A DNA stretch of 13,576 nucleotides from a virus (IMGVR_UViG_3300045988_080276:1-13576), one strand, 5' to 3'. Shown: positions 140-13,576, counted from the stretch's first letter. Numbers and translations are program-made. The notes: generated from the sequence alone by a model not told the origin.

Positions 140-168
140 TTGACATATTAGTTCAATTGGACTATAGT
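140..168 (+). promoter_or_regulatory. Near-consensus sigma-A/sigma-70 type promoter in the left ITR, firing inward
   Basis: The -35 is TTGACA (140-145), the spacer is 17 bp, and the -10 is TATAGT (163-168). The predicted TSS is near 175, just upstream of the small ITR ORF. Confidence 0.7.
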
Positions 169-200
169 AGACTTATCAAATGAAAGAGAGGAAACAAGAT

Positions 201-437
201 ATGAATAGCTTAGAAAACCTTAATGAGTTGTTGGAAAGGGCAAATGATGAGGGATATTGCTGGAGTGCTTTTGAGTCATTAGCTGGAGTTGTTGAAGTGT
301 ATGTGAACCGATTAGATAAATATAAGTATGATGTTTCTTACAAGGTACTCTGTACAGGTGCTGAGTACACTCGTACTTTTAACACTATAGTTGATGTCAA
401 GAGAGATATTTTAGATGAATTTCTATTTGAAGAGTAA
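201..437 (+). CDS. Small acidic hypothetical protein encoded in the ITR, left copy (78 aa from ATG 201; the ORF track gives 85 aa from ATG 180)
   Basis: The ORF track calls 180..437. ATG 180 lies about 5 nt from the predicted TSS and has no SD. ATG 201 has GAGAGG (186-191) 9 nt upstream. I count 16 D/E against 8 K/R in the 78-aa form. I recognise no family. An identical copy sits in the right ITR. Confidence 0.65.
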   Translation: MNSLENLNELLERANDEGYCWSAFESLAGVVEVYVNRLDKYKYDVSYKVLCTGAEYTRTFNTIVDVKRDILDEFLFEE

Positions 438-445
438 AAACAATA

Positions 446-463
446 GCCCAGCATCCGCTGGGC
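446..463. terminator. Hairpin terminator between convergent genes, shared by both strands
   Basis: GCCCAGC (446-452), loop ATCC, GCTGGGC (457-463). In the minus-strand sense, after the tail-fibre gene, it is followed by UAUUGUUUUUA, a good U-tract. In the plus-strand sense it is followed by CAUCUCUAUUAUU, a poor U-tract. Confidence 0.6.
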
Positions 464-474
464 CATCTCTATTA

Positions 475-1731
475 TTACATTGTGATTGAACCTCTATGAA
501 TTTGTACCTGTGTTACTTCTGTCAAAGTCCGGTAGTAGTGCTTATCGTCTGAAATATCATACAGGGCTAAATAGATATGCCTTCCTCGGAAGTTAAGCTG
601 TGCAGGGATGTGATAGAAATTACTTCCGGACTTAACGATCACAGTTGTTGGATAGCATGTGTATCCGTTATGATCTCCAATAAAAGACGTTGAGAAAATC
701 CGTCCCAAACGGTATTCCGTGCCATCACAGACAAGTGTTCCGCTGTTTGGGAGACAAACATAGTTACCCCATATCAGAGTACTCGTATTCTCATTATACG
801 AACTAACAAATGTCCAACTTGATCCAAGAGTTGGTGCAAAGTCACCTGCTTCAAAATTTGCAATAACATCATAAAATGATGGACTACACGATCCTGTTTC
901 TACAGCTGTAGCAAGATAGGCTGCAAGCCGTTCCTGCCCTGTTGTGTTTGGGTGAAATCCATCAGAAGCAAGAAAACCATCTGCATGAAGAATATAATCG
1001 CTTCCTGTCAAATACCGCCAATTCTTCCGCTGTATGTTATACACACTCTTCGCAGTCTTGAGCCTATTCTGTACATTTGGATCATCTGTCCGATCAACTG
1101 ACCATGCTACCATGGCAGAAAACACTTTGGCATTCGGAAATCTTGCTTCTGCTGCTCCCATAAAAGCGTTGATTCCGTTTTCAATTTCTGAGTAGCTTCC
1201 AAACTCATTAAATCCACCTACGACAAGGACCTGTTTTACATCCGCAGAAGCTGGTACAGCGTTTAACAACATAAGAAATGAATTAGTACTTGTTGAGAAA
1301 GATGCCCCACCATTTGCAGATATTGTGACATCCTCAAGTCCTGTGTACTTAATAAAGTTAGTTGTCCATGGAGTTACATTGCCATCCGGTGTATACCCAA
1401 CGGTATAACTGTCACCGATGATGATGGTTTTACCTGAGTGATCAAAAAGTCCTTCTCTTTTCTGTAATTTTGTGATCTCAGCTGTATTTGTTTCTACTTG
1501 CCCTTTTAATGGGTCAATCTGTTCAGTAATTACTTTGGTAGTAGCTTCATTTACTACTTTTCCAATCTCTCCATCATCAAGAGATTTCTGTATAGCATCA
1601 TCAATCATAGTCTGAGCTGTATCTTTGATGTGTGTCCACTCCTCGTGATCTTTGTCAGCCTGTTTGCCAACCTTCAGCATCCAGTCTAAGTTCATATCCT
1701 GCATGGAACTATGTGGATAATCAAAAAACAT
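475..1731 (-). CDS. Tail fibre/appendage protein with SGNH (GDSL) esterase domain, 418 aa
   Basis: All SGNH blocks are readable: I IIIGDSYTVGY, II ISANGGASF, III VVGGFNEF, V SDGFHPN. The first ~95 aa are coiled-coil-like and the last ~130 aa are beta-rich. It is the last gene of the structural array, where phi29 has gp12. The SD is GGAGGG, 6 nt before the ATG. Codons 102-418 lie inside the ITR. Confidence 0.75.
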   Translation of the reverse strand: MFFDYPHSSMQDMNLDWMLKVGKQADKDHEEWTHIKDTAQTMIDDAIQKSLDDGEIGKVVNEATTKVITEQIDPLKGQVETNTAEITKLQKREGLFDHSGKTIIIGDSYTVGYTPDGNVTPWTTNFIKYTGLEDVTISANGGASFSTSTNSFLMLLNAVPASADVKQVLVVGGFNEFGSYSEIENGINAFMGAAEARFPNAKVFSAMVAWSVDRTDDPNVQNRLKTAKSVYNIQRKNWRYLTGSDYILHADGFLASDGFHPNTTGQERLAAYLATAVETGSCSPSFYDVIANFEAGDFAPTLGSSWTFVSSYNENTSTLIWGNYVCLPNSGTLVCDGTEYRLGRIFSTSFIGDHNGYTCYPTTVIVKSGSNFYHIPAQLNFRGRHIYLALYDISDDKHYYRTLTEVTQVQIHRGSITM

Positions 1732-1743
1732 GTTATTCCCTCC

Positions 1744-2433
1744 TTAATAAATTAATAAAAGCAGATCCTGTGCAAATAACCCGGTGCAATAGTCAATGAA
1801 GCTTTGTTTCCTTAACTCAAGCTCTGACTGGATCATCTGCTGTGAAGTAGTAACACCAACGTTGCCATGAATACGCCCTACATGCTTATTCTGTCCAGTC
1901 TCTCTGCTTGTCTCACCCTTGCCATATTCAAATGTATTTTTGTTTTCTCCGGAGCTTTGTACTGTTGTGCTGCTACCGTACTCCGTTGTCGTTTTTTCGT
2001 TCGGGCTGTAATTTTGATCATTAAAAGCACTGACTTCATTGGTTGCTGTATCTGCCCCGGAGTTGGTCGTAGTGCTTCCATGTCCCGCTTCTTCCCTGTT
2101 GATATCCTGCCCGGAGCTTTGGCTTGTTCGTGTCATATCCGGGCTATCTGTCCATTCTTCATGACGATCATAGTTTTCAATAGGTTCATAATTAGTTAAT
2201 TCTAACACATTATAAACCTTGTCAATGCTTGTTTTCCATTTCATGCTCCAAGCAGGAATAGCACTGTTATACATGAAATCCCAGTCCGGATAGAGTGGCT
2301 CACAATCTCCATAGGACAGAAGCAGGCTATCAATAAAATTCTGCCTGTCTGCTGATTCTGGGAACTCCATCTTGTCAAACAGAGTACTGTTCCATTCGTA
2401 AAGCCCTGCTATAGTTACTCTATAAAGTCCCAT
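1744..2433 (-). CDS. Putative lower collar / head-tail adaptor protein (gp11 position), 229 aa
   Basis: It lies immediately downstream of the portal gene and overlaps it by 14 nt. The SD is GGAGGTG, 7 nt before the ATG. It has a Ser/Thr/Gly-rich central region and a conserved-looking C-terminus, GNVGVTTSQQMIQSELELRK. The function is assigned mainly from synteny with phi29 genes 10-11-12. Confidence 0.45.
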   Translation of the reverse strand: MGLYRVTIAGLYEWNSTLFDKMEFPESADRQNFIDSLLLSYGDCEPLYPDWDFMYNSAIPAWSMKWKTSIDKVYNVLELTNYEPIENYDRHEEWTDSPDMTRTSQSSGQDINREEAGHGSTTTNSGADTATNEVSAFNDQNYSPNEKTTTEYGSSTTVQSSGENKNTFEYGKGETSRETGQNKHVGRIHGNVGVTTSQQMIQSELELRKQSFIDYCTGLFAQDLLLLIY

Positions 2434-3340
2434 AAGGTTTCACCTCCACAGTCTCATAACTTCTGATCTTGATTGACAGGTCCATCTCCGGATAAAGTCT
2501 ATTTGTCATGTCAACACCTGCTTGCATGGTTTCAAGCCAAGTAGTTAGCCGTGTCACGGATTCTGCATCATTTTTGCTTGTCTCAAGCATATTCAATCGT
2601 TCTTTTTTATCAGATCCGACTGATGGGATGCCAACCTCTGTATCGAATTGATCCAGAAGTTTTTCAAAAACCTCAATAAGTTCTGGTGCAATAAAATTTT
2701 GCTTAAGATCCTTATTAAAAGTTTCCCATGCATCCTGCTTGCTTCCTTGTCTGTCCTCACTTTTTATTGATACGTCAAACGCTTCAACAGGGTTTCCTGC
2801 CTGGATGCTGTCATAGATTTTTTTCAATGTCTGAGCGGATGCCTTGTTTTTCGCAGCAATCAGAAAAGCAAGCTTTGAATTAAAAACATTCATGTCGAAA
2901 GCAGATGCTACAAGTGCCAGTTTGTAGCTGTAAAATCCGATAATGTCTCCAATCCCACAAAAAGTTGGTCTGAGATAGATGACAGAACAATCTTTTCCGA
3001 TCTCCATGTCTTCAATGTCAATAACAGCGTTGCTAGCATACGTGTGTATAGTTGCTATCGTTGGCTTGAAATAAATGTTATAGCCTGTCAGCATTGGGTA
3101 CTGCGCAATAAGTCCATAAAGATCTGTCTTTGTCACGCAAATATAGCCACCGAAAAGTAGGCAATATTTGAAGTAGTCAATATCAATGTTGGCATTATAT
3201 TTGATGTCAAGCACAGAGCATACACGCTCGTAAAGCATCCGATCAAATATATCTGTATATAAGCTGTCAACCTTAATTCCAGATGGTTGGAAGTAATTTG
3301 TACATATATTGATCTTGTCAAAATTCATAGGTGCCCACAT
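2420..3340 (-). CDS. Portal / upper collar (connector) protein, phi29 gp10-like, 306 aa
   Basis: Its size is close to that of phi29 gp10 (309 aa). The segment VGIPSVGSDKKERLNMLETSKNDAES resembles gp10 [28 protein letters not shown] (recalled from memory). The SD is AGGAGG, 9 nt upstream. It sits between the tail-knob and collar genes. Confidence 0.8.
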   Translation of the reverse strand: MWAPMNFDKINICTNYFQPSGIKVDSLYTDIFDRMLYERVCSVLDIKYNANIDIDYFKYCLLFGGYICVTKTDLYGLIAQYPMLTGYNIYFKPTIATIHTYASNAVIDIEDMEIGKDCSVIYLRPTFCGIGDIIGFYSYKLALVASAFDMNVFNSKLAFLIAAKNKASAQTLKKIYDSIQAGNPVEAFDVSIKSEDRQGSKQDAWETFNKDLKQNFIAPELIEVFEKLLDQFDTEVGIPSVGSDKKERLNMLETSKNDAESVTRLTTWLETMQAGVDMTNRLYPEMDLSIKIRSYETVEVKPYGTL

Positions 3341-3355
3341 TTTTTCATTCCTCCT

Positions 3356-4699
3356 TTATTCAAAATAAAAACCAGTGTTTAAATAACTGTTCACTTGATC
3401 CTGATCTCCCTCAAAACCTGCAAGCTGTATTGATGCATTCCTACATTTTACAAACCCACTCAATGAAGAAATAGTTCTAACAGTTTCGTCCACATAACCC
3501 TCGCTTGTTCCATCTGGATCAAGACTTGTACAGGCATATGAATTGAACTCTAAAATCTGGTTATTGAGTATATTTGATATATTACCAATAGTCCCCAGCA
3601 TAGATATTTCTGGTGCTGTAATGCTTCTTGCTACATCTATTCCTGCTGAGATACCTTGAATGTTTCCTTGTAATCCTGCACTAACAAGGCTCACAGCTGA
3701 TGTAGTCAACTGGGCTATGTTTGTAGTTGCATAACCAATTTGCACGGGCACTGACAACTGGAATTGATAAGATGCAAAAACAACTTTTTTTGACTGCAAA
3801 AATACATTGCATAATCCACTTGTTGCATCAAATTGATAGAGTGCATTTACGCTTTCATCAATTTTATAAGGGTTAAGGGCAACTACTCCAATAAAAGGAA
3901 GCTTAATAAAATAGGTTGAAAATGACGGACTATAATACCTAAAATCAGTGATAGCATAAAGTGGATTATCAAAAGCAAATGAATAAGAAAAATTAATAAC
4001 CGCATCTTCATCAATTCTTTTTGCCATTACACCACTATCCCAGAATCCTAGCTGTATTGCTTCACTATTACTATTTTTAAAGGCATCTTCAATAAATGGA
4101 ACCCATTTTAAATCAACGATATATTTAAAAGGGTCAAACATTAACTTTGTAACAGCATCCTTTATCACATCAGCAAAATTTGATTCTGTATACATATAGT
4201 CGAGTAACCTATTTAATTGGCTGCCATTAATGTAGTATGATGCAACTCCTGTTTTTGAAACTACTCGTATGATATATTGCTGTGAGTATGTTTGTGTCAT
4301 TATTTTTTCTTTGTGTCTCACATTTCTGGTTGTTAGCACCCAATCATTTGTTGGAATATACATAGAATCATTGGCAAGAGTAGTCTGCCTGCTTGATCTC
4401 TCAATAAAACATGTATAGTTGCCGATCTCTGTCCGGTAAGTTGCTAGCACATCCTCACTTGCTGAGATCTCAACCATGTCGTTATTTAATGATGTAGTCG
4501 AATTGATAAAATAATAATGGTCAGCCCATTTCAGATAGTTGTATTGCAATGCATTATCCAGTGATAATTTTAATTTAAACACTGGATTCTGAAAAGCGGT
4601 ATCAGCTTTTAAAAGGCAGGGGACAGAAGTCCCCTGCCCTGCTGGTCTTTTGGTGCTGTTTTTTCGTTTGGAAAAATGAAATAAAATAATCTCTGTCAT
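3356..4699 (-). CDS. Putative tail knob / major tail protein (phi29 gp9 position), 447 aa
   Basis: It lies immediately upstream of the portal gene, as gp9 does in phi29. The N-terminal region (YNYLKWADHYYFINSTT...EDVLATYRTEI) resembles my memory of the gp9 N-terminus. Its ATG overlaps the lysin stop codon (ATGA at 4696-4699). The SD is GGTGAGGT. Confidence 0.55.
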   Translation of the reverse strand: MTEIILFHFSKRKNSTKRPAGQGTSVPCLLKADTAFQNPVFKLKLSLDNALQYNYLKWADHYYFINSTTSLNNDMVEISASEDVLATYRTEIGNYTCFIERSSRQTTLANDSMYIPTNDWVLTTRNVRHKEKIMTQTYSQQYIIRVVSKTGVASYYINGSQLNRLLDYMYTESNFADVIKDAVTKLMFDPFKYIVDLKWVPFIEDAFKNSNSEAIQLGFWDSGVMAKRIDEDAVINFSYSFAFDNPLYAITDFRYYSPSFSTYFIKLPFIGVVALNPYKIDESVNALYQFDATSGLCNVFLQSKKVVFASYQFQLSVPVQIGYATTNIAQLTTSAVSLVSAGLQGNIQGISAGIDVARSITAPEISMLGTIGNISNILNNQILEFNSYACTSLDPDGTSEGYVDETVRTISSLSGFVKCRNASIQLAGFEGDQDQVNSYLNTGFYFE

Positions 4700-5346
4700 T
4701 TTACATATACCTCACCTTTTGCTGTGATGGCGCAGATCCATCCGGATGGAATCTTTACCCACGTTGCTCCGGCATCATCCTTTTTTATATCTTTTACCGT
4801 GACTGTGGTTCCTTTTTTCAGGCATCCATCTGAATGGGCATGTTTCATTCCATCAAAAGTTAGCTGTGCATACTCTTTGACCTGCCCCCATATGCTGTAG
4901 CGCACATGTAAGTGATCCACCATTGTAGTATAACTCTTACCTATTTCATAAGATGGACTTTTTTCATCCCATACCCTGCGGATGCAAGATAAGTCAGACC
5001 TACGAGTTACAAGACTTTTTACAACTCCAATACCTGGATTATTGACGGTATTTTTTCTTACTCCCCTGCTTTCAATCATATATCCATTACCGATATAAAT
5101 AGCACAGTGAGTAACCCTATTTCCAAAAAATAGAAAGTCACCTGCTTTCTGCTGCCCAATCGCAATCTTTGTTCCAATCTTGGAATAACCGGAAGCCGTC
5201 AGTCTTCCAACATTTGATCCAGCTGTCCTCTGGATCCAGTATAGCAACCCTGAACAGTCAAGTCCCTGTGTGGGGTTTGAACCACCCCACACATATCTCA
5301 CTCCAAGTAATTCCTTTGCATTTTCGACAAGTTCAATCGCTGTCAT
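4696..5346 (-). CDS. NlpC/P60 peptidoglycan endopeptidase with C-terminal SH3-like domain (endolysin or tail-associated lysin), 216 aa
   Basis: The catalytic Cys lies in GLDCSGLLYW and the His in VTHCAIYIGNGYMIES. The C-terminal ~80 aa (GATWVKIPSGWICAITAKGEVYV) look like a bacterial SH3 wall-binding domain. The gene is adjacent to the holin. Confidence 0.8.
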   Translation of the reverse strand: MTAIELVENAKELLGVRYVWGGSNPTQGLDCSGLLYWIQRTAGSNVGRLTASGYSKIGTKIAIGQQKAGDFLFFGNRVTHCAIYIGNGYMIESRGVRKNTVNNPGIGVVKSLVTRRSDLSCIRRVWDEKSPSYEIGKSYTTMVDHLHVRYSIWGQVKEYAQLTFDGMKHAHSDGCLKKGTTVTVKDIKKDDAGATWVKIPSGWICAITAKGEVYVK

Positions 5347-5596: not shown

Positions 5597-6820
5597 CTAA
5601 TTATTACTAGGTGGCTTTGGTGCAACCTCCCCAAGCACGTAAAGAATAGCATTATGTGTGAAGTTGTTCCAAGCATTGAAGCGGTAGTGGTCAAAGATAT
5701 TGTAATATCCGCCTGCCGCATTGAATGGTGTAGTTGCAGAATACATCCACTGATTATTCACACCCATTGCTCTACGATCGTATAAAAGACCGAGTACATA
5801 AGGAATATTTACAGCTGAATTTGCTTTCTTTGAAACACCGTTCGCATCAATAATGTTTGGAGTGATGTTAATAGCTGGGCTGTCGAACTCCTGCCAGCCA
5901 TTTACCAGTTCTTTGTCGGCAATTTTAAGCTGTTCATCGTTAAATACCGTCGGGAATACCTGTGTTTCGCTGTCAATCCAGAAATCTGTGTACATGAGCA
6001 ACTTCTGGTTCTCCGGACGTGTAAATCTCAAGATATCTTTCCCAGTCAGATTCATGTGATATTTTGTTGTGCGATCCTGCATCTTCTTTGAGTCTTTCTT
6101 GATTCTTGCAACCACAAAAGCCATGAAATCTCTGTGATGTTCCGGGCTTAAAAGCTGTTTTCTTGTAAGATATGTACCATATGCTGTATTGTATTCATTT
6201 ACAAGATCAACCTCATTTGTGCCAAGTGAAGAGATACCCGCCATGAAGTTAAGCACCGTCATTCTGCGCTTTGCTTCGTTTCGGCTCTCGATGTCATTAT
6301 AATAAGCTGTCATGTATGAGCTTACAAACATAAGAAACTCTGCTTCGTTGGAAAAAGCAAGTGCCAGCTGATCCCGGAATCGTGTGATATGTGACTGAAG
6401 TAGCTTGCTTCCGTAGAATTTCAACTCAACTACTTTTGGGTTATTAATCTTGTACATATCCACAGACTGACCATCAGTAAGCTGGTTTTCATTCAAGTCT
6501 GTATTCCAATCCTGTGATGCTTCTGCATCCAATGGAAGTGAAATAATCTCACGTGTGATAGCTCCCCATCGCTCATTATCCTCAATGATGGAGCGAAACA
6601 CACCGGATCTGTACTTTTCCATTTCAAAATATGTTCGTCCACACCACTGGCTGAGTGCTTTTAGTGTTGGTTCTACTCCTGTCCGTAGCATGGTTTCACC
6701 CACAGACACAAATGAACTTGTATCCACTGCCTTAATGTTCTCCCTACCAGTAGCCATCTTGTACAGGTCATTAATGATGAGATAAGCATCCTGCACAACT
6801 AAACTATTTGCCATTTCCAT
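5597..6820 (-). CDS. Major capsid protein, phi29 gp8-like (HK97 fold expected), 407 aa
   Basis: It follows the scaffold gene, matching the phi29 7-8 order. The segment EFLMFVSSYMTAYYNDIE resembles gp8 FESFVSSIINAIYNSAE (from memory). The SD GAGGAGG is only 2 nt from ATG 6820 but 8 nt from the in-frame ATG at 6814, so the true start may be 6814. Confidence 0.8.
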   Translation of the reverse strand: MEMANSLVVQDAYLIINDLYKMATGRENIKAVDTSSFVSVGETMLRTGVEPTLKALSQWCGRTYFEMEKYRSGVFRSIIEDNERWGAITREIISLPLDAEASQDWNTDLNENQLTDGQSVDMYKINNPKVVELKFYGSKLLQSHITRFRDQLALAFSNEAEFLMFVSSYMTAYYNDIESRNEAKRRMTVLNFMAGISSLGTNEVDLVNEYNTAYGTYLTRKQLLSPEHHRDFMAFVVARIKKDSKKMQDRTTKYHMNLTGKDILRFTRPENQKLLMYTDFWIDSETQVFPTVFNDEQLKIADKELVNGWQEFDSPAINITPNIIDANGVSKKANSAVNIPYVLGLLYDRRAMGVNNQWMYSATTPFNAAGGYYNIFDHYRFNAWNNFTHNAILYVLGEVAPKPPSNN

Positions 6821-6829
6821 TACCTCCTC

Positions 6830-7159
6830 TTAATTCATGATTTTCATAAGATCTTCTGCCACGTTCTCAGATGTTCGTGGTGCTGATCCAGCTTTTCCGG
6901 ATGCCGAAAGGTTACCAGCCTGTAACGTAGCAGTCAATGTATTGATTGCTGTCAGAAGAGCTGCATTAGTTGCATCCTGTCCAGGAGTAACCTGTTCCGG
7001 AGTTGTAACCTGTCCCGGAGTTGTAACCTGTCCTGGAGTAACCTGTCCCGGAGTTGAAATCTGTCCAAGCCCAGACATATTCTGTGCATTCATAATTCCA
7101 ATGATCTCATCTTTTGAAAATCCAAGCTTTCCGAGTTCCAAAATTTCCTCTACTTTCAT
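6830..7159 (-). CDS. Putative scaffolding protein (phi29 gp7 position) with internal PGQVT repeats, 109 aa
   Basis: It is a small protein directly upstream of the capsid gene. The SD is AAGGAG, 6 nt before the ATG. The ends look helical and the centre is low-complexity. The function is inferred from position and size only (gp7 is 98 aa). Confidence 0.55.
   Translation of the reverse strand: MKVEEILELGKLGFSKDEIIGIMNAQNMSGLGQISTPGQVTPGQVTTPGQVTTPEQVTPGQDATNAALLTAINTLTATLQAGNLSASGKAGSAPRTSENVAEDLMKIMN
6968..7066 (-). repeat. In-frame tandem repeat encoding (T)PGQVT units
   Basis: The protein reads GQISTPGQVTPGQVTTPGQVTTPEQVTPGQDAT. The DNA shows about 5 imperfect 15/18-nt units (ggagtaacctgtcc / ggagttgtaacctgtcc). 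Confidence 0.8.
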
Positions 7160-7194
7160 TTTTATCTCCTTTTCTGCCGGAAGTTAAAATTAAA

Positions 7195-7266
7195 ATAGGT
7201 CAACGCTTCCGGGTTATCACCCCATGGCATCCGCTTCCGGCGGTCGATGTAGCCACGTTGACCTAT
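7195..7266 (-). ncRNA. Candidate structured RNA (three-way junction, ~72 nt) at the 5' end of the late transcript; could be an ncRNA, attenuator, antiterminator or pRNA-like element, function unknown
   Basis: The closing helix is 11 bp: AUAGGUCAACG (7266->7256) pairs with CGUUGACCUAU (7205->7195). Inside are two hairpins, CCGC-CGGAA-GCGG (7243->7231) and GGGU-GAUA-ACCC (7222->7211). The structure is followed by UUUAAUUUUAA and starts at the predicted TSS of the 7271-7299 promoter. Confidence 0.35.
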
Positions 7267-7270
7267 ATCT

Positions 7271-7299
7271 AATATATAATTTTTAAAATAGTTTGTCAA
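7271..7299 (-). promoter_or_regulatory. Near-consensus promoter for the structural (late) gene block
   Basis: On the minus strand the -35 is TTGACA (7299->7294), the spacer is 17 bp, and the -10 is TATATT (7276->7271). The -35 lies in the last codons of the ATPase gene. The predicted TSS is at about 7266-7263. Confidence 0.6.
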
Positions 7300-8329
7300 T
7301 ATAGAATTTTACAGAAATATTCTGGTAGCTGATTCTATTTGTCAGACGATAGCTGTCAATCCAGCTATAAAAGCACCGGAATTGGTCTTTTCCATGCTGG
7401 CTGTCTTCAAATACATCCTTGCAGGATCCGGAAATATGATCAGAAACATACAAGTGTGCTTTTGATTTATGCTCATAAATTGCAACTTTTCCGATCACAC
7501 AAATAAGCTTGTATTGACGGATATCTTCTGATCGGATCGCTGATATATCATCATATGCAAAATCGTTTGACAATGCCATCTTTTCAAAGTCTGTATCTCC
7601 AGATAAAGCACGATACAAAGCGGTATCTTTTTTCTTTTCCGATATTGGGGAATTATTAATCAGAATCAAGATGATTCCTCTCTCTTTTAACATGGAAAAC
7701 TCCTGCTTATTCTTTTTCATTCGTTCCAAGATCGGAAGCAACCCGAAAGCCTGCACAATTGGATTATCCAACGTGTTTGAGTTGGAAGCAAGCCACCATC
7801 GGAACGGTTTCTTTCCTTGTAGCTCCCTGTTTGCGGATATTGTTTCAACAGCATTCAGAAAAGCATCATCTTCCCCACTGATTGACTTGGCAATCTTTTC
7901 CGGGATAAACTCATCATAAATTCCCTCAGAGAAATCAGATCCAGAGAAACCACGGTTATTATGCATGGATGTAAGACAAAAAGCTTCACCCCGGTATACT
8001 TCTTCATCCTCTGTTTGCTCCATGATCTTAATGCGTCCGTATTCCCCTCTTGGTTTTTCAAAATGAAAAAACCTATTCATGTCCTTGTTTATGTCAATCC
8101 ATGGATCAAATTCCGGAAGAAAGACTTTTGTCAGCTGTTCTTTTGTCCGGCGCATGTAAATGATCTTCTCATTTTTCGAAAATACATCATTGATAAAGTG
8201 TTGGAAAATACCATATGTTTTTCCGGTTCGTCTGGCTCCAATAATGAATATGAAATTAATTTTATTTTTATCAGCCAGCTGGACGATCCTTGGAACATCC
8301 AGCCAACCATTTCTATCATAGATATTCAT
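7283..8329 (-). CDS. DNA encapsidation (packaging) ATPase, phi29 gp16-like, 348 aa from ATG 8329
   Basis: Walker A is FIFIIGARRTGKTYG (gp16: FVIGARGIGKSYA). IIYMRRTKEQLTKV matches gp16 FIYVRRYKPELAKV. Walker B is IYDEFIPEK (gp16: VFDEFIREK). The ORF track starts at 8377, but ATG 8329 forms TAATG with the upstream stop codon and has GGAGGTG ~10 nt upstream. Confidence 0.9.
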   Translation of the reverse strand: MNIYDRNGWLDVPRIVQLADKNKINFIFIIGARRTGKTYGIFQHFINDVFSKNEKIIYMRRTKEQLTKVFLPEFDPWIDINKDMNRFFHFEKPRGEYGRIKIMEQTEDEEVYRGEAFCLTSMHNNRGFSGSDFSEGIYDEFIPEKIAKSISGEDDAFLNAVETISANRELQGKKPFRWWLASNSNTLDNPIVQAFGLLPILERMKKNKQEFSMLKERGIILILINNSPISEKKKDTALYRALSGDTDFEKMALSNDFAYDDISAIRSEDIRQYKLICVIGKVAIYEHKSKAHLYVSDHISGSCKDVFEDSQHGKDQFRCFYSWIDSYRLTNRISYQNISVKFYIDKLF

Positions 8330-8628
8330 TACCGAAATCCACCTCCAGAGGATGCAGGCTCCGAATTCTGATTGCACTCATTGTATTTTTTGATGCAAGC
8401 ATCCTGCAATAATTTTTTCCATTCTTTATCAAGAGAATAAACAGAATTATAATACTTCCCGTCTTTCCCCTTTGTGCTTGGGAATGACAGGAAAAGACCA
8501 TCTTTTCCCTCAACCAACGTAAGAGCTTTGATAACCAATGTGTCATCCAGAGAAAGATCAACAAAGGCTTTTGTTTTTGAATTCCCATTATAAGGTTTGC
8601 AAGTAATTTTTACGTTTGATTTTAACAT
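8329..8628 (-). CDS. SpoVG-like nucleic-acid-binding protein, 99 aa
   Basis: KAFVDLSLDDTLVIKALTLVEGKDGLFLSFPSTKGKDGKYY aligns by eye with B. subtilis SpoVG [41 protein letters not shown] (from memory). The SD is AAGGAG. Translation appears coupled to the ATPase gene. Confidence 0.7.
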   Translation of the reverse strand: MLKSNVKITCKPYNGNSKTKAFVDLSLDDTLVIKALTLVEGKDGLFLSFPSTKGKDGKYYNSVYSLDKEWKKLLQDACIKKYNECNQNSEPASSGGGFR

Positions 8629-8968: not shown

Positions 8969-11092
8969 TTATCCGTATACGGTATCTTCAATCTCAAATG
9001 GTAATGGTAATCCGGTTTCCTTGTCATATGGTATTGTATGATCCAACTCGTATTCTGTATCGCTCAAGCGGATGGCACATCCATATTCAATCTTGCAACC
9101 GTCAATGATTACCTCATTTATTCCATCATGAAATATATATTCTGTCTTCATTTTCCACTTGGGATCCTGCCAATCATTCGATCTTCTGTAGTTCCTGCGG
9201 AATGTCAAGTCATTTCTGAAAATAAATCCTTTTCTAAAATTGGTTATATCATCGTTAAGGCAATAAATCCCCTCTTTTGGCACACCTGCGACTGTCAGAT
9301 GCAAGGATGCATCCTTTTTCAATCGGTAACAATAACGCTTGCTACCCATCGTTTTAAATTCACTGTATATCCCATCAAATTCAGCAATACCCAGTCGGAA
9401 TGTTTTAGAATTATACTCAACTACTCCGATGTTTCTTTTTTGTGACATTTCAATGATGGATCGATTAAATGAATCCAGTTTATCGTGATCCCAGTCTGTG
9501 CCCTTTACTGAATCTGTGTCTGAATATAACCAGTTCCGGCAACAGGAACCCAGCAGGAACAGATAAGCTTGTGCATACGCTGTGATCCATACCCCCCACT
9601 GGTAGGGCATGAAGCTGTTCTTGTTCCGATAGAACTTTTCAAGCTCTTTTTCCCTGTCCTCTGGTTCTTTTGATTCCCAGTCTCCGGAATCCATAAGCTC
9701 TGTACATAACATCTGAATAATTCTTTGAACTGTCATTCCGTACATACCATTTAATTCGCCTTTTGATATCATGTAGTTTTCTTCGTCCAAGCCTTTAAGG
9801 GTGCATTTTTTAAAAAACAATTCCATCAAATATCCGGTAAACCACTCCGGCAAGTAATCTTTTGTTGCCCTCATGACTTTTGACACATCGGCCCAGTCAT
9901 AGTCATAACTTGAAAGGATGACTTCTAAATCCGGATCCGTAAATGGATATATGACAAGATCAGCGTTGACGATCTTTCCATTATCCAGATTATCGTGGAA
10001 CTGTTCTTTTTTACTTTTTGCTTCCGGAAAAACACATACTTTCGCTTTTGAAAAAGCAAGTGGAGGCATAGGACAGTCTTTTTTTAGTCTCAGATTCTTT
10101 AATCTGATATATCCGGAAAAAGCATAGTCATCTTTCAATTCCATAATGTCTTTTAATGTTATATTGTTAGTATAACAAAATTTTGACATTGGAAACTTGC
10201 AATAGCACATCCATGCTATATAGGAACTTGTGAAATCGTAGCACTCAACAGGATCTTTTATCAGTTGGTTGACATAGTACCTATTGGCATGAGTATAACC
10301 ACCGTGATAGCAGTCAAGCATCTGGTCATACTGCTCCAACGTCAGAGCCATTTGTTCAAATTGCTTTCGCCATTTCTTGTCTTTTCTCGCTCGCCTGCGG
10401 GAATTGGCACGGATAAAACCTGTATTTGTCAACGGGCAGTTAGCCACGTTAAATCCTCTTTGGTTTATGTATTTGCGTAATGCCTTGCATAGACTGATTG
10501 TATCCGTACATACATATGCTATTTCTTTTGCTGTACGTGGGCTTTCCGGTGTTCGAAATTTCTTATAGTCCCATGTTCCAACTGCTTTCTCAGTTGTTCC
10601 CATGTCTTTGCAAAGTTTCTCAAGTGATCGTTGTGTGAGTATTAGACTATCACGGAATTCAATTCCCTGCGATGTCCATTTCATAAAAATATATTTATGG
10701 GTTTTAGCAGATAAAGACTTATCAGGATAGCCCCATTTTTGGAAAAAATGATTACGGAGAAAAACATAGTCATAAGGGAAATTGTGCACATAAAAGCGTA
10801 CAAGATGACTATCATCACTATGAAGAGTTGTACAGATCCTATCAATCGTATCAATCAGATCGGAAACATGATTACCGTAAATACAGCAATCATCCTCTAT
10901 AGTGATTGTCCAATCCGTGACAAAACCAATATCTTTGTTCATGTAAACAAATGTCTCTGTGTCTATAGTTATGATTTTTTCATAAACACCAAGATAATGT
11001 CCTGCATTGGACCTCCGGATAAAATCACCATCGAAAAGGCGCATATAATCATAATTTTTAAAATAAATAACCGGATATCCTGCGACTACCAT
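8969..11092 (-). CDS. Protein-primed family-B DNA polymerase, 707 aa
   Basis: The motifs are Exo I ITIDTETF, Exo II YVHNFPYDYVF, Exo III AYVCTDTISL, motif A YDFTSSYIAWM, motif B KGELNGMYGM, motif C LYSDTDS and KxY GSKRYCY. The SD is GGAGGG. Confidence 0.95.
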   Translation of the reverse strand: MVVAGYPVIYFKNYDYMRLFDGDFIRRSNAGHYLGVYEKIITIDTETFVYMNKDIGFVTDWTITIEDDCCIYGNHVSDLIDTIDRICTTLHSDDSHLVRFYVHNFPYDYVFLRNHFFQKWGYPDKSLSAKTHKYIFMKWTSQGIEFRDSLILTQRSLEKLCKDMGTTEKAVGTWDYKKFRTPESPRTAKEIAYVCTDTISLCKALRKYINQRGFNVANCPLTNTGFIRANSRRRARKDKKWRKQFEQMALTLEQYDQMLDCYHGGYTHANRYYVNQLIKDPVECYDFTSSYIAWMCYCKFPMSKFCYTNNITLKDIMELKDDYAFSGYIRLKNLRLKKDCPMPPLAFSKAKVCVFPEAKSKKEQFHDNLDNGKIVNADLVIYPFTDPDLEVILSSYDYDWADVSKVMRATKDYLPEWFTGYLMELFFKKCTLKGLDEENYMISKGELNGMYGMTVQRIIQMLCTELMDSGDWESKEPEDREKELEKFYRNKNSFMPYQWGVWITAYAQAYLFLLGSCCRNWLYSDTDSVKGTDWDHDKLDSFNRSIIEMSQKRNIGVVEYNSKTFRLGIAEFDGIYSEFKTMGSKRYCYRLKKDASLHLTVAGVPKEGIYCLNDDITNFRKGFIFRNDLTFRRNYRRSNDWQDPKWKMKTEYIFHDGINEVIIDGCKIEYGCAIRLSDTEYELDHTIPYDKETGLPLPFEIEDTVYG

Positions 11093-11107: not shown

Positions 11108-11725
11108 CTATGGCCTGTATTTCAAAGCTTCCGCTTCACCTGAGAACCCCAACTGTTTTGCTATCGTGTCAGCCATATCTGGATCAGTTCTCCCCCGGAA
11201 TTTTTCCAAATCTTTTATAATTTCAGAAACAGTAGAATCATCCAATTTATGACTGATGATTCTCAAAGCTTGCTTGCTGTCATAGAAATTCTGAATCCGT
11301 TTCCAGACCTCAGATTTGAAAAAAAGTTTCATTTCTGTTTCTGACTTAAAGATAATTCCATAGCTTTCGAGCTTCTTTCGACGATTATCTATAATCTTCC
11401 TCCAACCCTGCACAGTGCTGCTTTTTTCTTTCAGTATTTTTTGTATTGCTTTGACCTGGGTTCTAGGCAATCCTTTATATTTTTCATTTTCCAGATTTTC
11501 CGGAATAGTGGATCGCCCTGGAAAAAATCTTGCAAGCAGATCTTGATAATCTGCGTACGCTCCTCCAACCTCTGAGTCAAACCCTTTTGCCTTTAACCTG
11601 CGCATACGCTGATTCAAACGTTTTGCAAGCTGTCTGCGGAGTTGCAAAGCTTCCATCGTTGTTAGCATGTTCGGGTTGACATTCAGACCCTTTGACGTGG
11701 TTGGGATTTTAGGATTCTTCGGCAT
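11108..11725 (-). CDS. Candidate terminal protein (by position), 205 aa
   Basis: It lies immediately upstream of the polymerase gene and is co-oriented with it, matching the phi29 gene 3-gene 2 order. The N-terminus is basic (QLRRQLAKRLNQRMRRLKAKG). The SD is AAGGGGGTG. I see no direct sequence similarity to any known terminal protein. Confidence 0.45.
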   Translation of the reverse strand: MPKNPKIPTTSKGLNVNPNMLTTMEALQLRRQLAKRLNQRMRRLKAKGFDSEVGGAYADYQDLLARFFPGRSTIPENLENEKYKGLPRTQVKAIQKILKEKSSTVQGWRKIIDNRRKKLESYGIIFKSETEMKLFFKSEVWKRIQNFYDSKQALRIISHKLDDSTVSEIIKDLEKFRGRTDPDMADTIAKQLGFSGEAEALKYRP

Positions 11726-12083
11726 TGTTAAGCACCCCCTTCATATATTCATATAGTTCATAAAAATCTCTAGTATTAATACAATAATCTAATTCTGGTT
11801 TTTTAATGATCAAATAGAGATTTTCGCAAATCACTCTTGCATCATTGATTGTATCATACACAAAAAATGAAGCACTAAAATTATCTTTCATAACACCTAT
11901 TACAGACTGTGCACGTGTGTACATTCTCTTGCGTGAGATCCGCTTTATAGTAACCTTTATTTCTGGATATTTTAATTCTATCATATCCGACCTGTCAAGA
12001 TTTGGTCTGGATTTAATAAGAGTTACAACCGGGGCTTTTACCCCGGTATTGGTATATTTGATTTTTGTGTATTTTGATTTCAT
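11709..12083 (-). CDS. Hypothetical early protein, 124 aa
   Basis: It is the first gene of the leftward array. The SD is AAGGAGG, 8 nt before the ATG. It overlaps the next gene by 17 nt. The N-terminus is basic. I recognise no family. Confidence 0.6.
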   Translation of the reverse strand: MKSKYTKIKYTNTGVKAPVVTLIKSRPNLDRSDMIELKYPEIKVTIKRISRKRMYTRAQSVIGVMKDNFSASFFVYDTINDARVICENLYLIIKKPELDYCINTRDFYELYEYMKGVLNNAEES

Positions 12084-12148
12084 TTACTATTCCTCCTTTA
12101 CAATCAATATTTAAGATTACAATAATCCATGACTTTTTGAAACCCTAA

Positions 12149-13102
12149 ACCATCATCATCGGTGACAGTTATACCGTTGGGTATACACCGGATGGCAATG
12201 TAACTCCATGGACAACTAACTTTATTAAGTACACAGGACTTGAGGATGTCACAATATCTGCAAATGGTGGGGCATCTTTCTCAACAAGTACTAATTCATT
12301 TCTTATGTTGTTAAACGCTGTACCAGCTTCTGCGGATGTAAAACAGGTCCTTGTCGTAGGTGGATTTAATGAGTTTGGAAGCTACTCAGAAATTGAAAAC
12401 GGAATCAACGCTTTTATGGGAGCAGCAGAAGCAAGATTTCCGAATGCCAAAGTGTTTTCTGCCATGGTAGCATGGTCAGTTGATCGGACAGATGATCCAA
12501 ATGTACAGAATAGGCTCAAGACTGCGAAGAGTGTGTATAACATACAGCGGAAGAATTGGCGGTATTTGACAGGAAGCGATTATATTCTTCATGCAGATGG
12601 TTTTCTTGCTTCTGATGGATTTCACCCAAACACAACAGGGCAGGAACGGCTTGCAGCCTATCTTGCTACAGCTGTAGAAACAGGATCGTGTAGTCCATCA
12701 TTTTATGATGTTATTGCAAATTTTGAAGCAGGTGACTTTGCACCAACTCTTGGATCAAGTTGGACATTTGTTAGTTCGTATAATGAGAATACGAGTACTC
12801 TGATATGGGGTAACTATGTTTGTCTCCCAAACAGCGGAACACTTGTCTGTGATGGCACGGAATACCGTTTGGGACGGATTTTCTCAACGTCTTTTATTGG
12901 AGATCATAACGGATACACATGCTATCCAACAACTGTGATCGTTAAGTCCGGAAGTAATTTCTATCACATCCCTGCACAGCTTAACTTCCGAGGAAGGCAT
13001 ATCTATTTAGCCCTGTATGATATTTCAGACGATAAGCACTACTACCGGACTTTGACAGAAGTAACACAGGTACAAATTCATAGAGGTTCAATCACAATGT
13101 AA
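12149..13102 (+). pseudogene. 5'-truncated duplicate of the SGNH tail-fibre gene (codons 102-418) inside the right ITR
   Basis: It is identical to the left copy from codon 102 onward. TAA at 12146-12148 replaces the AAA of codon 101. The first in-frame ATG is at 12305 (the ORF-track 265-aa ORF). That ATG has no SD, and the product would lack the GDS block I and block II. Confidence 0.7.
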
Positions 13103-13113
13103 TAATAGAGATG

Positions 13114-13131
13114 GCCCAGCGGATGCTGGGC
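13114..13131. terminator. Right-ITR copy of the hairpin terminator
   Basis: It mirrors 446-463. For leftward transcription from the right-end promoter, it presents the side with the poor U-tract. Confidence 0.6.
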
Positions 13132-13139
13132 TATTGTTT

Positions 13140-13376
13140 TTACTCTTCAAATAGAAATTCATCTAAAATATCTCTCTTGACATCAACTATAGTGTTAAAA
13201 GTACGAGTGTACTCAGCACCTGTACAGAGTACCTTGTAAGAAACATCATACTTATATTTATCTAATCGGTTCACATACACTTCAACAACTCCAGCTAATG
13301 ACTCAAAAGCACTCCAGCAATATCCCTCATCATTTGCCCTTTCCAACAACTCATTAAGGTTTTCTAAGCTATTCAT
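13140..13376 (-). CDS. Small acidic hypothetical protein encoded in the ITR, right copy
   Basis: It is identical to 201..437 (ORF track 13140..13397). Here it is co-oriented with the whole gene array. Confidence 0.65.
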   Translation of the reverse strand: MNSLENLNELLERANDEGYCWSAFESLAGVVEVYVNRLDKYKYDVSYKVLCTGAEYTRTFNTIVDVKRDILDEFLFEE

Positions 13377-13408
13377 ATCTTGTTTCCTCTCTTTCATTTG
13401 ATAAGTCT

Positions 13409-13437
13409 ACTATAGTCCAATTGAACTAATATGTCAA
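13409..13437 (-). promoter_or_regulatory. Right-ITR copy of the near-consensus promoter, firing leftward
   Basis: It mirrors 140-168: TTGACA, 17 bp, TATAGT on the minus strand. Confidence 0.7.
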
Positions 13438-13576
13438 TAGAATAAGTGACGACTTTGTATGATATTGTCAGACAATTTAATGTTATAGTTATCTAGCAAT
13501 ATTCATGCCAGTTTTTTGCAATTATGAACAGATTGGGGAAATGTTAACAATTTGTTCACAGGTTGGTCTTGCCAAG

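Follow-up and report, generated by a model that had tools for sequence, protein, structure and literature searches.

A 1.43-kb inverted terminal repeat carrying a truncated esterase gene copy in a phi29-like gut phage genome

Genome organization and termini

The sequence analysed here, which we call the window, is a stretch of 13,576 nt that represents the complete linear genome of a phi29-like podovirus from the gut, short of three terminal bases (AAA) at each end. For comparison we used the GenBank phage MT836115.1 (84.5% identical, from human faeces), a set of 65 IMG/VR contigs that includes about 50 close relatives (polymerase 91-94% identical), and several Logan and ENA contigs that were reached through the 124-aa and 85-aa proteins described below; individual loci from this collection are given L numbers. 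Nearly all genes of the window lie on the minus strand. Profile searches identified a protein-primed family B DNA polymerase (8969-11092; PF03175, 43.1 bits against a cut-off of 25.8; phrog_1907, E 2e-49), and a gp16-type packaging ATPase (7283-8377), a gp10-type connector (2420-3340), and a phi29-type major capsid protein (5597-6820), for which the matches to PF05894, PF05352, and PF25622 all exceed their cut-offs. An NlpC/P60 tail lysin is encoded at 4696-5346. The first conserved early gene encodes 124 aa (11709-12083, minus strand) and shares 97.9% DNA identity with its counterpart in L002, and its protein is recorded on three contigs. The 205-aa gene beside the polymerase gene had no family match in the profile searches, and its position suggests that it encodes the putative terminal protein.

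At least 15 relatives end in AAACTTGGCAAG, which is found at position 1 of L002, L003, L009, L010, L013, L024, L030, L036, L048, and others, while the window begins with CTTGGCAAG instead. The window thus seems to lack the terminal AAA at both ends, and with these bases restored the genome would measure about 13,582 nt and its repeat about 1433 nt. More than 50 relatives share the repeat core and the termini, and in L018 an Illumina adapter tail (CTTCCGATCT) is joined straight to AAACTTGG, which marks a physical DNA end at this point. The termini are therefore physical ends of the DNA. Three identical terminal bases are the rule in phi29-like phages, where they permit sliding-back initiation (PMC6266182).

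The two arms of the terminal repeat

The window carries an inverted terminal repeat (positions 1-1430 and 12147-13576) of 1430 nt, the arms of which are 100% complementary and each make up 10.5% of the genome. In the left arm (1-1430) the repeated sequence lies in its native context, which consists of the terminus, a promoter, a small gene, a hairpin, and the 3' 954 nt of an esterase gene. The promoter is a strong sigma-70-like site (TTGACA-17-TATAGT, 140-168, plus strand; mirrored at 13437-13409, minus strand) that is conserved in the repeat core of relatives. It is followed by the small gene g85 (180-437, plus strand; mirrored at 13397-13140, minus strand), which probably starts at the ATG at 201, giving a protein of 78 aa; its ten homologues are 68-79 aa long. 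A G+C-rich hairpin (442-467, minus strand; mirrored at 13110-13135, plus strand) has a T-run on its esterase-sense side only and is a predicted terminator in that direction alone.

The esterase gene itself (475-1731, minus strand) is complete and is the last gene of the structural module. Its 418-aa product has a coiled-coil-like N-terminus of about 95 aa and matches the Pfam family Lipase_GDSL_2 (PF13472) over residues 105-267 with 35.7 bits against a cut-off of 32.9. The GDS of SGNH block I is present at residues 106-108, with Ser108 as the predicted nucleophile, and the Asp-x-x-His of block V can be recognized by eye in the translation as DGFHPN. We consider the product a predicted SGNH esterase.

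The right arm (12147-13576) is the copied arm, and it stands in place of the variable early gene or genes that relatives carry between a repeat of about 0.2 kb and the 124-aa gene. It contains a truncated esterase copy (12146-13102, plus strand) that consists of a TAA followed by codons 102-418. An earlier note on this DNA, every string and coordinate of which proved correct, had placed the inner edge of the repeat in codon 101 of the esterase gene, seven codons ahead of the catalytic serine. This agrees with the numbering and with the translation: perfect identity ends between 12146 and 12147, equivalent to 1431 and 1430, and as (1731-1431)/3 = 100, position 1431 opens codon 101 (AAA, Lys), seven codons before Ser108. 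In the right copy this AAA is replaced by TAA (12146-12148), after which the frame continues ACC ATC ATC ATC GGT GAC AGT, or TIIIGDS. The same note had suggested that the stop was selected to silence the extra copy, a proposal that we found unsupported. With T at 34% of the bases on that strand, a junction codon of the form NAA is expected to be a stop about once in three cases. There would also be little to silence, as the copy already lacks a promoter, a ribosome-binding site (RBS), and the first 100 codons, and its first in-frame start (ATG at 12305, Met153) lies past the catalytic serine. We therefore regard the TAA as incidental, and on the reading that we favour below the truncated copy is a silent by-product.

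On the inner side of the right arm, positions 12084-12111 (minus strand) form the leader and RBS (AAGGAGG) of the 124-aa gene and are homologous to the same region in relatives. To judge from this homology, they were certainly never part of a former duplication. The distance from the repeat promoter to the 124-aa gene is now 1.3 kb, and no convincing promoter is present on the minus strand of 12084-12146. A strong promoter-like site (TTGACA-18-TAAAAT, 11998-11969, minus strand) lies inside the 124-aa gene, and its TTGACAGG word is conserved in relatives; with this site, transcription of the putative terminal-protein gene and the polymerase gene might not depend on the repeat promoter.

Terminal repeats and variable early genes in related phages

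The usual repeat in complete relatives is 225-250 nt long, with a range of 89-557 nt in which some of the shorter ones are truncated contigs. Its inner boundary coincides with the RBS of the first gene at either end or falls within that gene's first codons. The normal repeat of this family is thus an origin, a promoter, and a leader that drive a different small gene at each end. At the esterase end of relatives, a small gene is convergent with the esterase gene across the hairpin. Homologues of g85 occupy this position in the close relatives L070-L074, and a more distant phi29-like phage (L075) encodes one without an esterase neighbour. At the polymerase end, upstream of the 124-aa gene, we found at least eight unrelated small-gene cassettes, or none at all, and this slot between the repeat and the 124-aa gene appears to be hypervariable. 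One cassette family (...CNADPDFEKWCLNDIFGIEL) is not tied to this slot and lies at the polymerase end or at the esterase end, depending on the genome.

The window is collinear with its relatives up to 12108-12125, beyond which it continues into an inverted esterase end. None of the approximately 75 relatives has a second esterase copy; each has one. Because homology to the relatives' polymerase end resumes at 12108-12125 and the relatives have a single esterase gene, we infer that the esterase end overwrote the polymerase end, with the loss of the accessory early gene or genes located there. The unique polymerase end of the relatives is missing from the window and an inverted copy of the other end is present instead, which is what defines a terminal arm replacement. 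The junction at 12146|12147 was found in no other assembly searched (IMG/VR, JGI metagenomes, and GenBank phages).

Sequence has been copied between the ends elsewhere in the family. In two separate ENA assemblies (L078 and L079), the 3' end of the esterase-end small gene and its hairpin are found inverted at the RBS of the 124-aa gene. This 87-nt block matches the esterase end in more than 40 relatives, and it places the hairpin AATAGCCCAGCATCCGCTGGGCTAT directly upstream of the RBS (L078 1-84, L079 1-115). The polarity of copying is the same as in the window, while the breakpoint lies at the hairpin rather than inside the esterase gene. The same block is present in L067 (1-69), where the second half of the hairpin has been deleted between two CAGCAT words, which we read as true decay at an inner margin. 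In L002, a 442-nt repeat includes a whole accessory gene and has two mismatches just before its inner edge. Copying in the opposite direction is seen in L004 (12031-12587) and L008 (12419-12880). In both, the esterase end holds an inverted copy of the 124-aa gene, extended by a 5' portion of the gene that follows it, and the breakpoint within the small esterase-end gene differs between the two. Arm identity is 100% in L004 and 79% in L008, and both contigs stop short of the true termini, so that the 557-nt inverted repeat of L004 is located at contig ends that are not genome termini. Taken together, these loci point to end-copying that is recurrent in the family and occurs in both directions, with a mobile repeat boundary.

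The arms of a given genome also appear to evolve together. Within most complete relatives they are 97-100% identical, although this figure may be inflated because short-read assemblers tend to collapse repeats, while the 184-nt terminal core of the window is only 78-91% identical to that of relatives. Higher identity within genomes than between them is a signature of concerted evolution. Single mismatches between arms were retained by the assemblers in L010, L013, and L045. In L001, L041, L002, and L036, the outer part of the repeat is perfectly identical and the differences are scattered toward the inner edge, a pattern that fits homogenisation working best near the termini. The process is not strict: the arms differ by about 10% in L001 and L041 (in the aligned inner part), and by about 3% in L015, L036, and L039. 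The earlier note had seen in the window both concerted evolution and a decayed inner margin. The former holds at the level of the family, where inner-margin decay also occurs, but such decay was seen in relatives only.

The inner edge of the repeat

Between the right arm and the conserved leader of the 124-aa gene lies an orphan stretch of 35 nt (12112-12146), which holds the word GACTTTTTGA (12131-12140) and the pentamer AAACC (12140-12144). As 12084-12111 is homologous to the early-gene leader, these 35 nt are the most that could be an esterase relic. We searched for the orphan stretch with three exact or degenerate patterns in IMG/VR, which gave no match, with one 20-mer in the JGI metagenomes, which gave only an unrelated 24-nt chance match (L076), and with blastn-short against all collected loci, which gave no match beyond the RBS; among GenBank phages only MT836115.1 was recovered, and the stretch was not found.

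The word GACTTTTTGA is the reverse complement of TCAAAAAGTC (1442-1451), which lies 11 nt inside the left boundary in the real esterase gene and is kept in relatives as part of ...GLFDHSGK. Between this word and the start of identity there are 6 nt in the right copy, compared with 11 nt in the real gene. The earlier note had proposed from these matches that the duplication once reached further inward. Spelled out, this model would take the original copy to at least 1451 and perhaps to about 1475, with a 5-nt deletion, possibly a 10-nt deletion, and a number of substitutions accounting for the later decay of its innermost 20-45 nt, while gene conversion would keep everything outside a sharp boundary at 1430 identical. 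The word match was compared with chance by means of 5000 dinucleotide-preserving shuffles of the 63-nt inner flank, each compared with the 100 nt inside the left boundary. A shared word of at least 10 nt occurred in 79 shuffles when the offset was left free and in 19 when it had to lie within 10 nt of register in either direction, which corresponds to p of about 0.004-0.016 for a word that was found post hoc. Among real 63-mers of the genome, 16 of 2972 shared a word of at least 10 nt. The best local alignment score was reached in 185 of the 5000 shuffles (p of about 0.04), and the same 35 nt contain two further 10-mers that match unrelated genome sites, at 11780 (plus strand) and 9872 (plus strand). 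The 10-mer is thus present as described, but its significance is weak, the whole alignment is less distinctive, other 10-mers compete with it, and its status as a relic is not demonstrated. The smaller matches fare less well. The AAACC pair (12140-12144 and 12147-12151) is present but is not significant (p of about 0.01 for the exact word, 0.06 for any 5-mer), and ATTACA, which had been offered as a further relic, is a 6-mer without significance; both are incidental. The GACTTTTTGA word is either a chance match or an unreadable footprint of the event that formed the repeat.

As an account of the window, we consider an older, longer duplication that has decayed at its inner margin improbable, and this low probability applies to the deletions and substitutions together with the sharp conversion boundary. 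Several observations speak for it. The 10-mer lies within 5 nt of register, as in only 19 of the 5000 shuffles, and a gapped alignment adds AGATTACAATAATCC against AGATCACAAAATTAC with 11 of 15 positions matching. In the family as a whole the arms do evolve in concert, inner margins have decayed in L001, L041, L002, and L036, and in L067 the inner margin of the copied block carries a microdeletion flanked by direct repeats. The general model is therefore plausible, but its demonstration in the window fails on several grounds. Apart from the alignment statistics and the competing 10-mers, the leader at 12084-12111 is certainly no relic, and Blast carries homology with the polymerase-end sequence of L002 and L068 into 12112-12125. 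In an alignment anchored at the RBS, TTTGAAAAA in the accessory gene of L002 (43 nt away from the RBS) falls opposite TTTCAAAAA in the window (45 nt away), and the intervening sequence is about 62% identical; TTTCAAAAA may therefore be ancestral to the polymerase-end side. A change from 11 nt to 6 unrelated nt beside 1430 unchanged nt also looks like an abrupt event and not like gradual decay, while a recent event, or repeat collapse by the assembler, would explain the identity of the arms over 1430 nt equally well. The comparison with relatives gave a different boundary from that of the window, with the usual edge at the RBS or start codon and the window junction unique.

The orphan stretch may thus be an esterase relic or the remnant of a lost accessory gene, two tentative readings for which the support is similar. 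They are also compatible, as a word that already stood on that side may have annealed to esterase sequence when the repeat was formed. The 13-aa peptide GFQKVMDYCNLKY is a possible remnant of an accessory gene, and tblastn of the L002-type accessory protein against the window gave no match. Two simple microhomology models were rejected as complete explanations of the junction. Annealing at the 10-mer predicts GACTTTTTGA-TCACTCAGGTA-AAACC and annealing at AAACC predicts GACTTTTTGAAACCATC, while the observed order is GACTTTTTGA-AACCCT-AAACC. The esterase genes of relatives were checked for a variant nearer to GACTTTTTGAAACCC and none was found, and a search for a templated source of AACCCT near the junction gave only scattered 7-8-mers. 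No microhomology can be read at the crossover from the window alone.

Origin of the long repeat

We favour, at a little better than even odds (roughly 0.55), the reading that the 1.43-kb repeat is a real terminal arm copy, with the esterase end inverted onto the polymerase end. The ancestor would have had the family's repeat of about 0.2 kb, with a replication origin and an inward-facing promoter. In one illegitimate event, a block running from the terminus through the promoter, the 78/85-aa gene, and the hairpin to the 3' 954 nt of the esterase gene would have been copied, inverted, and joined at 12146|12147, displacing the variable early gene or genes. By the simplest route, a strand primed at the left end would have grown to about position 1430 and been displaced, after which it would have re-primed near 12146 on a strand of the same polarity and been extended along this template as far as the template's 5' end. 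The product would be 1430 + 12146 = 13,576 nt long and would have correct origins at both ends in a single step. The identity of the arms would then stem from the recency of the event, from the homogenisation seen in the family, or from both. Against this reading, the junction is unique to the window, none of the relatives has a duplicated esterase, the crossover shows no readable microhomology, both simple annealing models fail, and the early operon has been split from its conserved promoter and RBS arrangement by 1.3 kb, with no convincing promoter in between at 12084-12146. Early transcription plausibly passes the hairpin by read-through, because the hairpin lacks a T-run in that direction and lies in the same orientation before the 124-aa gene in L078 and L079, and early expression probably survives.

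A more general form of this account is that the phage's own polymerase repeatedly makes inverted template switches and that homogenisation then proceeds inward from the termini, in which case the window would represent the largest event and the 10-mer would be a pairing footprint. The recurrence of end-copying in both directions would accord with this scheme, which we put forward as tentative. Under it, the early operon would gain a 954-nt leader antisense to the late esterase mRNA.

The long repeat might also be an artefact. In that case the real genome would have an ordinary right end and a short repeat, and past 12146 the contig would have been extended with the reverse complement of its own left end. 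Chimeras, for example inverted chimeras amplified early in multiple displacement amplification, or an assembler error could have produced such a contig, and we regard these causes, taken jointly, as an unlikely but credible source of the repeat. The junction is unique among about 75 relatives and occurs in no other collection searched, and arms that are 100% identical over 1430 nt would follow automatically. Chimeras made by phi29 polymerase are mainly inverted (PMC1855051), inverted-repeat contigs of artefactual origin are known from gut metagenomes (PMC9610469), and L004 has its 557-nt inverted repeat at non-terminal contig ends. However, a chimera, being rare, would need to have prevailed over the true right end so fully that the contig retains no trace of it, and the length of the window falls inside the family range (maximum 13,789). 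The same polarity of copying also recurs in two separate assemblies (L078 and L079), the 79% identity of the L008 arms is impossible from a chimera of one genome, and assemblers resolved single arm mismatches in L010, L013, L045, and L002.

Comparison with other terminal repeats

Repeats of intermediate length are known from Cp-1, with about 236 bp, and from Lactococcus phage asccphi28, with about 577 bp. The inverted terminal repeats described for Bacillus phi29-like phages are far shorter, at 6-16 bp (PMC6266182, PMC11476376). The window shares with phi29-like phages a linear genome, a protein-primed PolB, a gp16-type ATPase, a connector, a phi29-type capsid protein, and identical ends, and its relatives end in AAA, as sliding-back initiation requires (PMC6266182). 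It differs in that its repeat of 1430 nt (1433 nt with the AAA) includes, besides a promoter and a terminator, one entire gene and three quarters of a structural gene.

The closest parallels in outcome are the terminal repeat variants of poxviruses and the linear chromosomes and plasmids of Streptomyces, in which one end is lost and replaced by the inverted other end, the repeat is lengthened, and the illegitimate junction lies inside a gene. The chemistry of the ends is different in these systems (poxviruses have hairpin ends), and the scales range from kilobases to hundreds of kilobases. In the window, the event would have taken place in a phage genome of 13.6 kb, with the phage's own strand-displacing polymerase as the likely agent. 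Adenoviruses also have protein-primed strand-displacing replication, and their arms are alike within genomes and diverged between them, with the outer part most identical. There, the repeats are repaired and homogenised through panhandle or strand-switch intermediates. Several of the phage relatives, unlike adenoviruses, tolerate differences of 3-10% between the arms (L001, L041, L015, L036, and L039).

The polymerase of phi29 itself offers a model of the proposed copying step, as it forms mostly inverted chimeras in vitro through displacement of a 3' end and re-priming (PMC1855051). In chimeras from multiple displacement amplification, the 3' end switches to a strand of the same polarity, which yields an inverted join and an intervening deletion as in the window, and 77% of the inverted joins have at least 2 bp of complementarity (PMC1855051). 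In contrast to these in vitro chimeras, the window would conceal any complementarity within the innermost bases of its repeat, where reading it would require the ancestral sequence. What the window adds is new in degree and not in kind: the family has mobile repeat boundaries that capture genes, and the window is the largest case among those compared.

Terminal repeats serve as a mark of completeness for protein-primed phages and are usually taken to be short and fixed. In this family the position of the inner boundary ranges from about 90 nt to 1.43 kb, promoters, whole genes, and parts of genes can be taken into the repeat, and each end is able to overwrite the other. Completeness calls for viromes should therefore allow for long and variable repeats, and truncated duplicates at contig ends should not be annotated as real genes. 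The mobility of the boundary also bears on how early "accessory" genes are shuffled in small linear genomes. If the junction of the window is real, the phage would be a natural substrate for measuring gene conversion from end to end.

Other features of the genome

Some further features of the window lie outside the repeat. The 109-aa gene upstream of the capsid gene (6830-7159, minus strand) contains imperfect tandem repeats of 15/18 nt (CCGGAGTTGTAACCTGTCC-like, 6968-7066), which suggest that its product contains a repetitive segment. A search of Rfam for a packaging RNA (pRNA) gave no matches at E<=1. Between the ATPase gene and the 109-aa gene, a candidate structured RNA is found at about 7190-7262 (minus strand). 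It is conserved and has a folding energy of -35.9 kcal/mol (z = -3.1), a promoter (TTGACA-17-TATATT, 7299-7271) lies just upstream of it, and in L007 its closing stem shows compensatory changes. It is possible that this RNA is the equivalent of the pRNA. L067 encodes an extra DNA methylase-like protein of 268 aa (3827-4633), a gene that the window lacks. Finally, the relatives' equivalent (L067 3521-3820) of the 99-aa gene at 8329-8628 (minus strand) is recorded as a SpoVG-family protein, which points to a host within the Bacillota.
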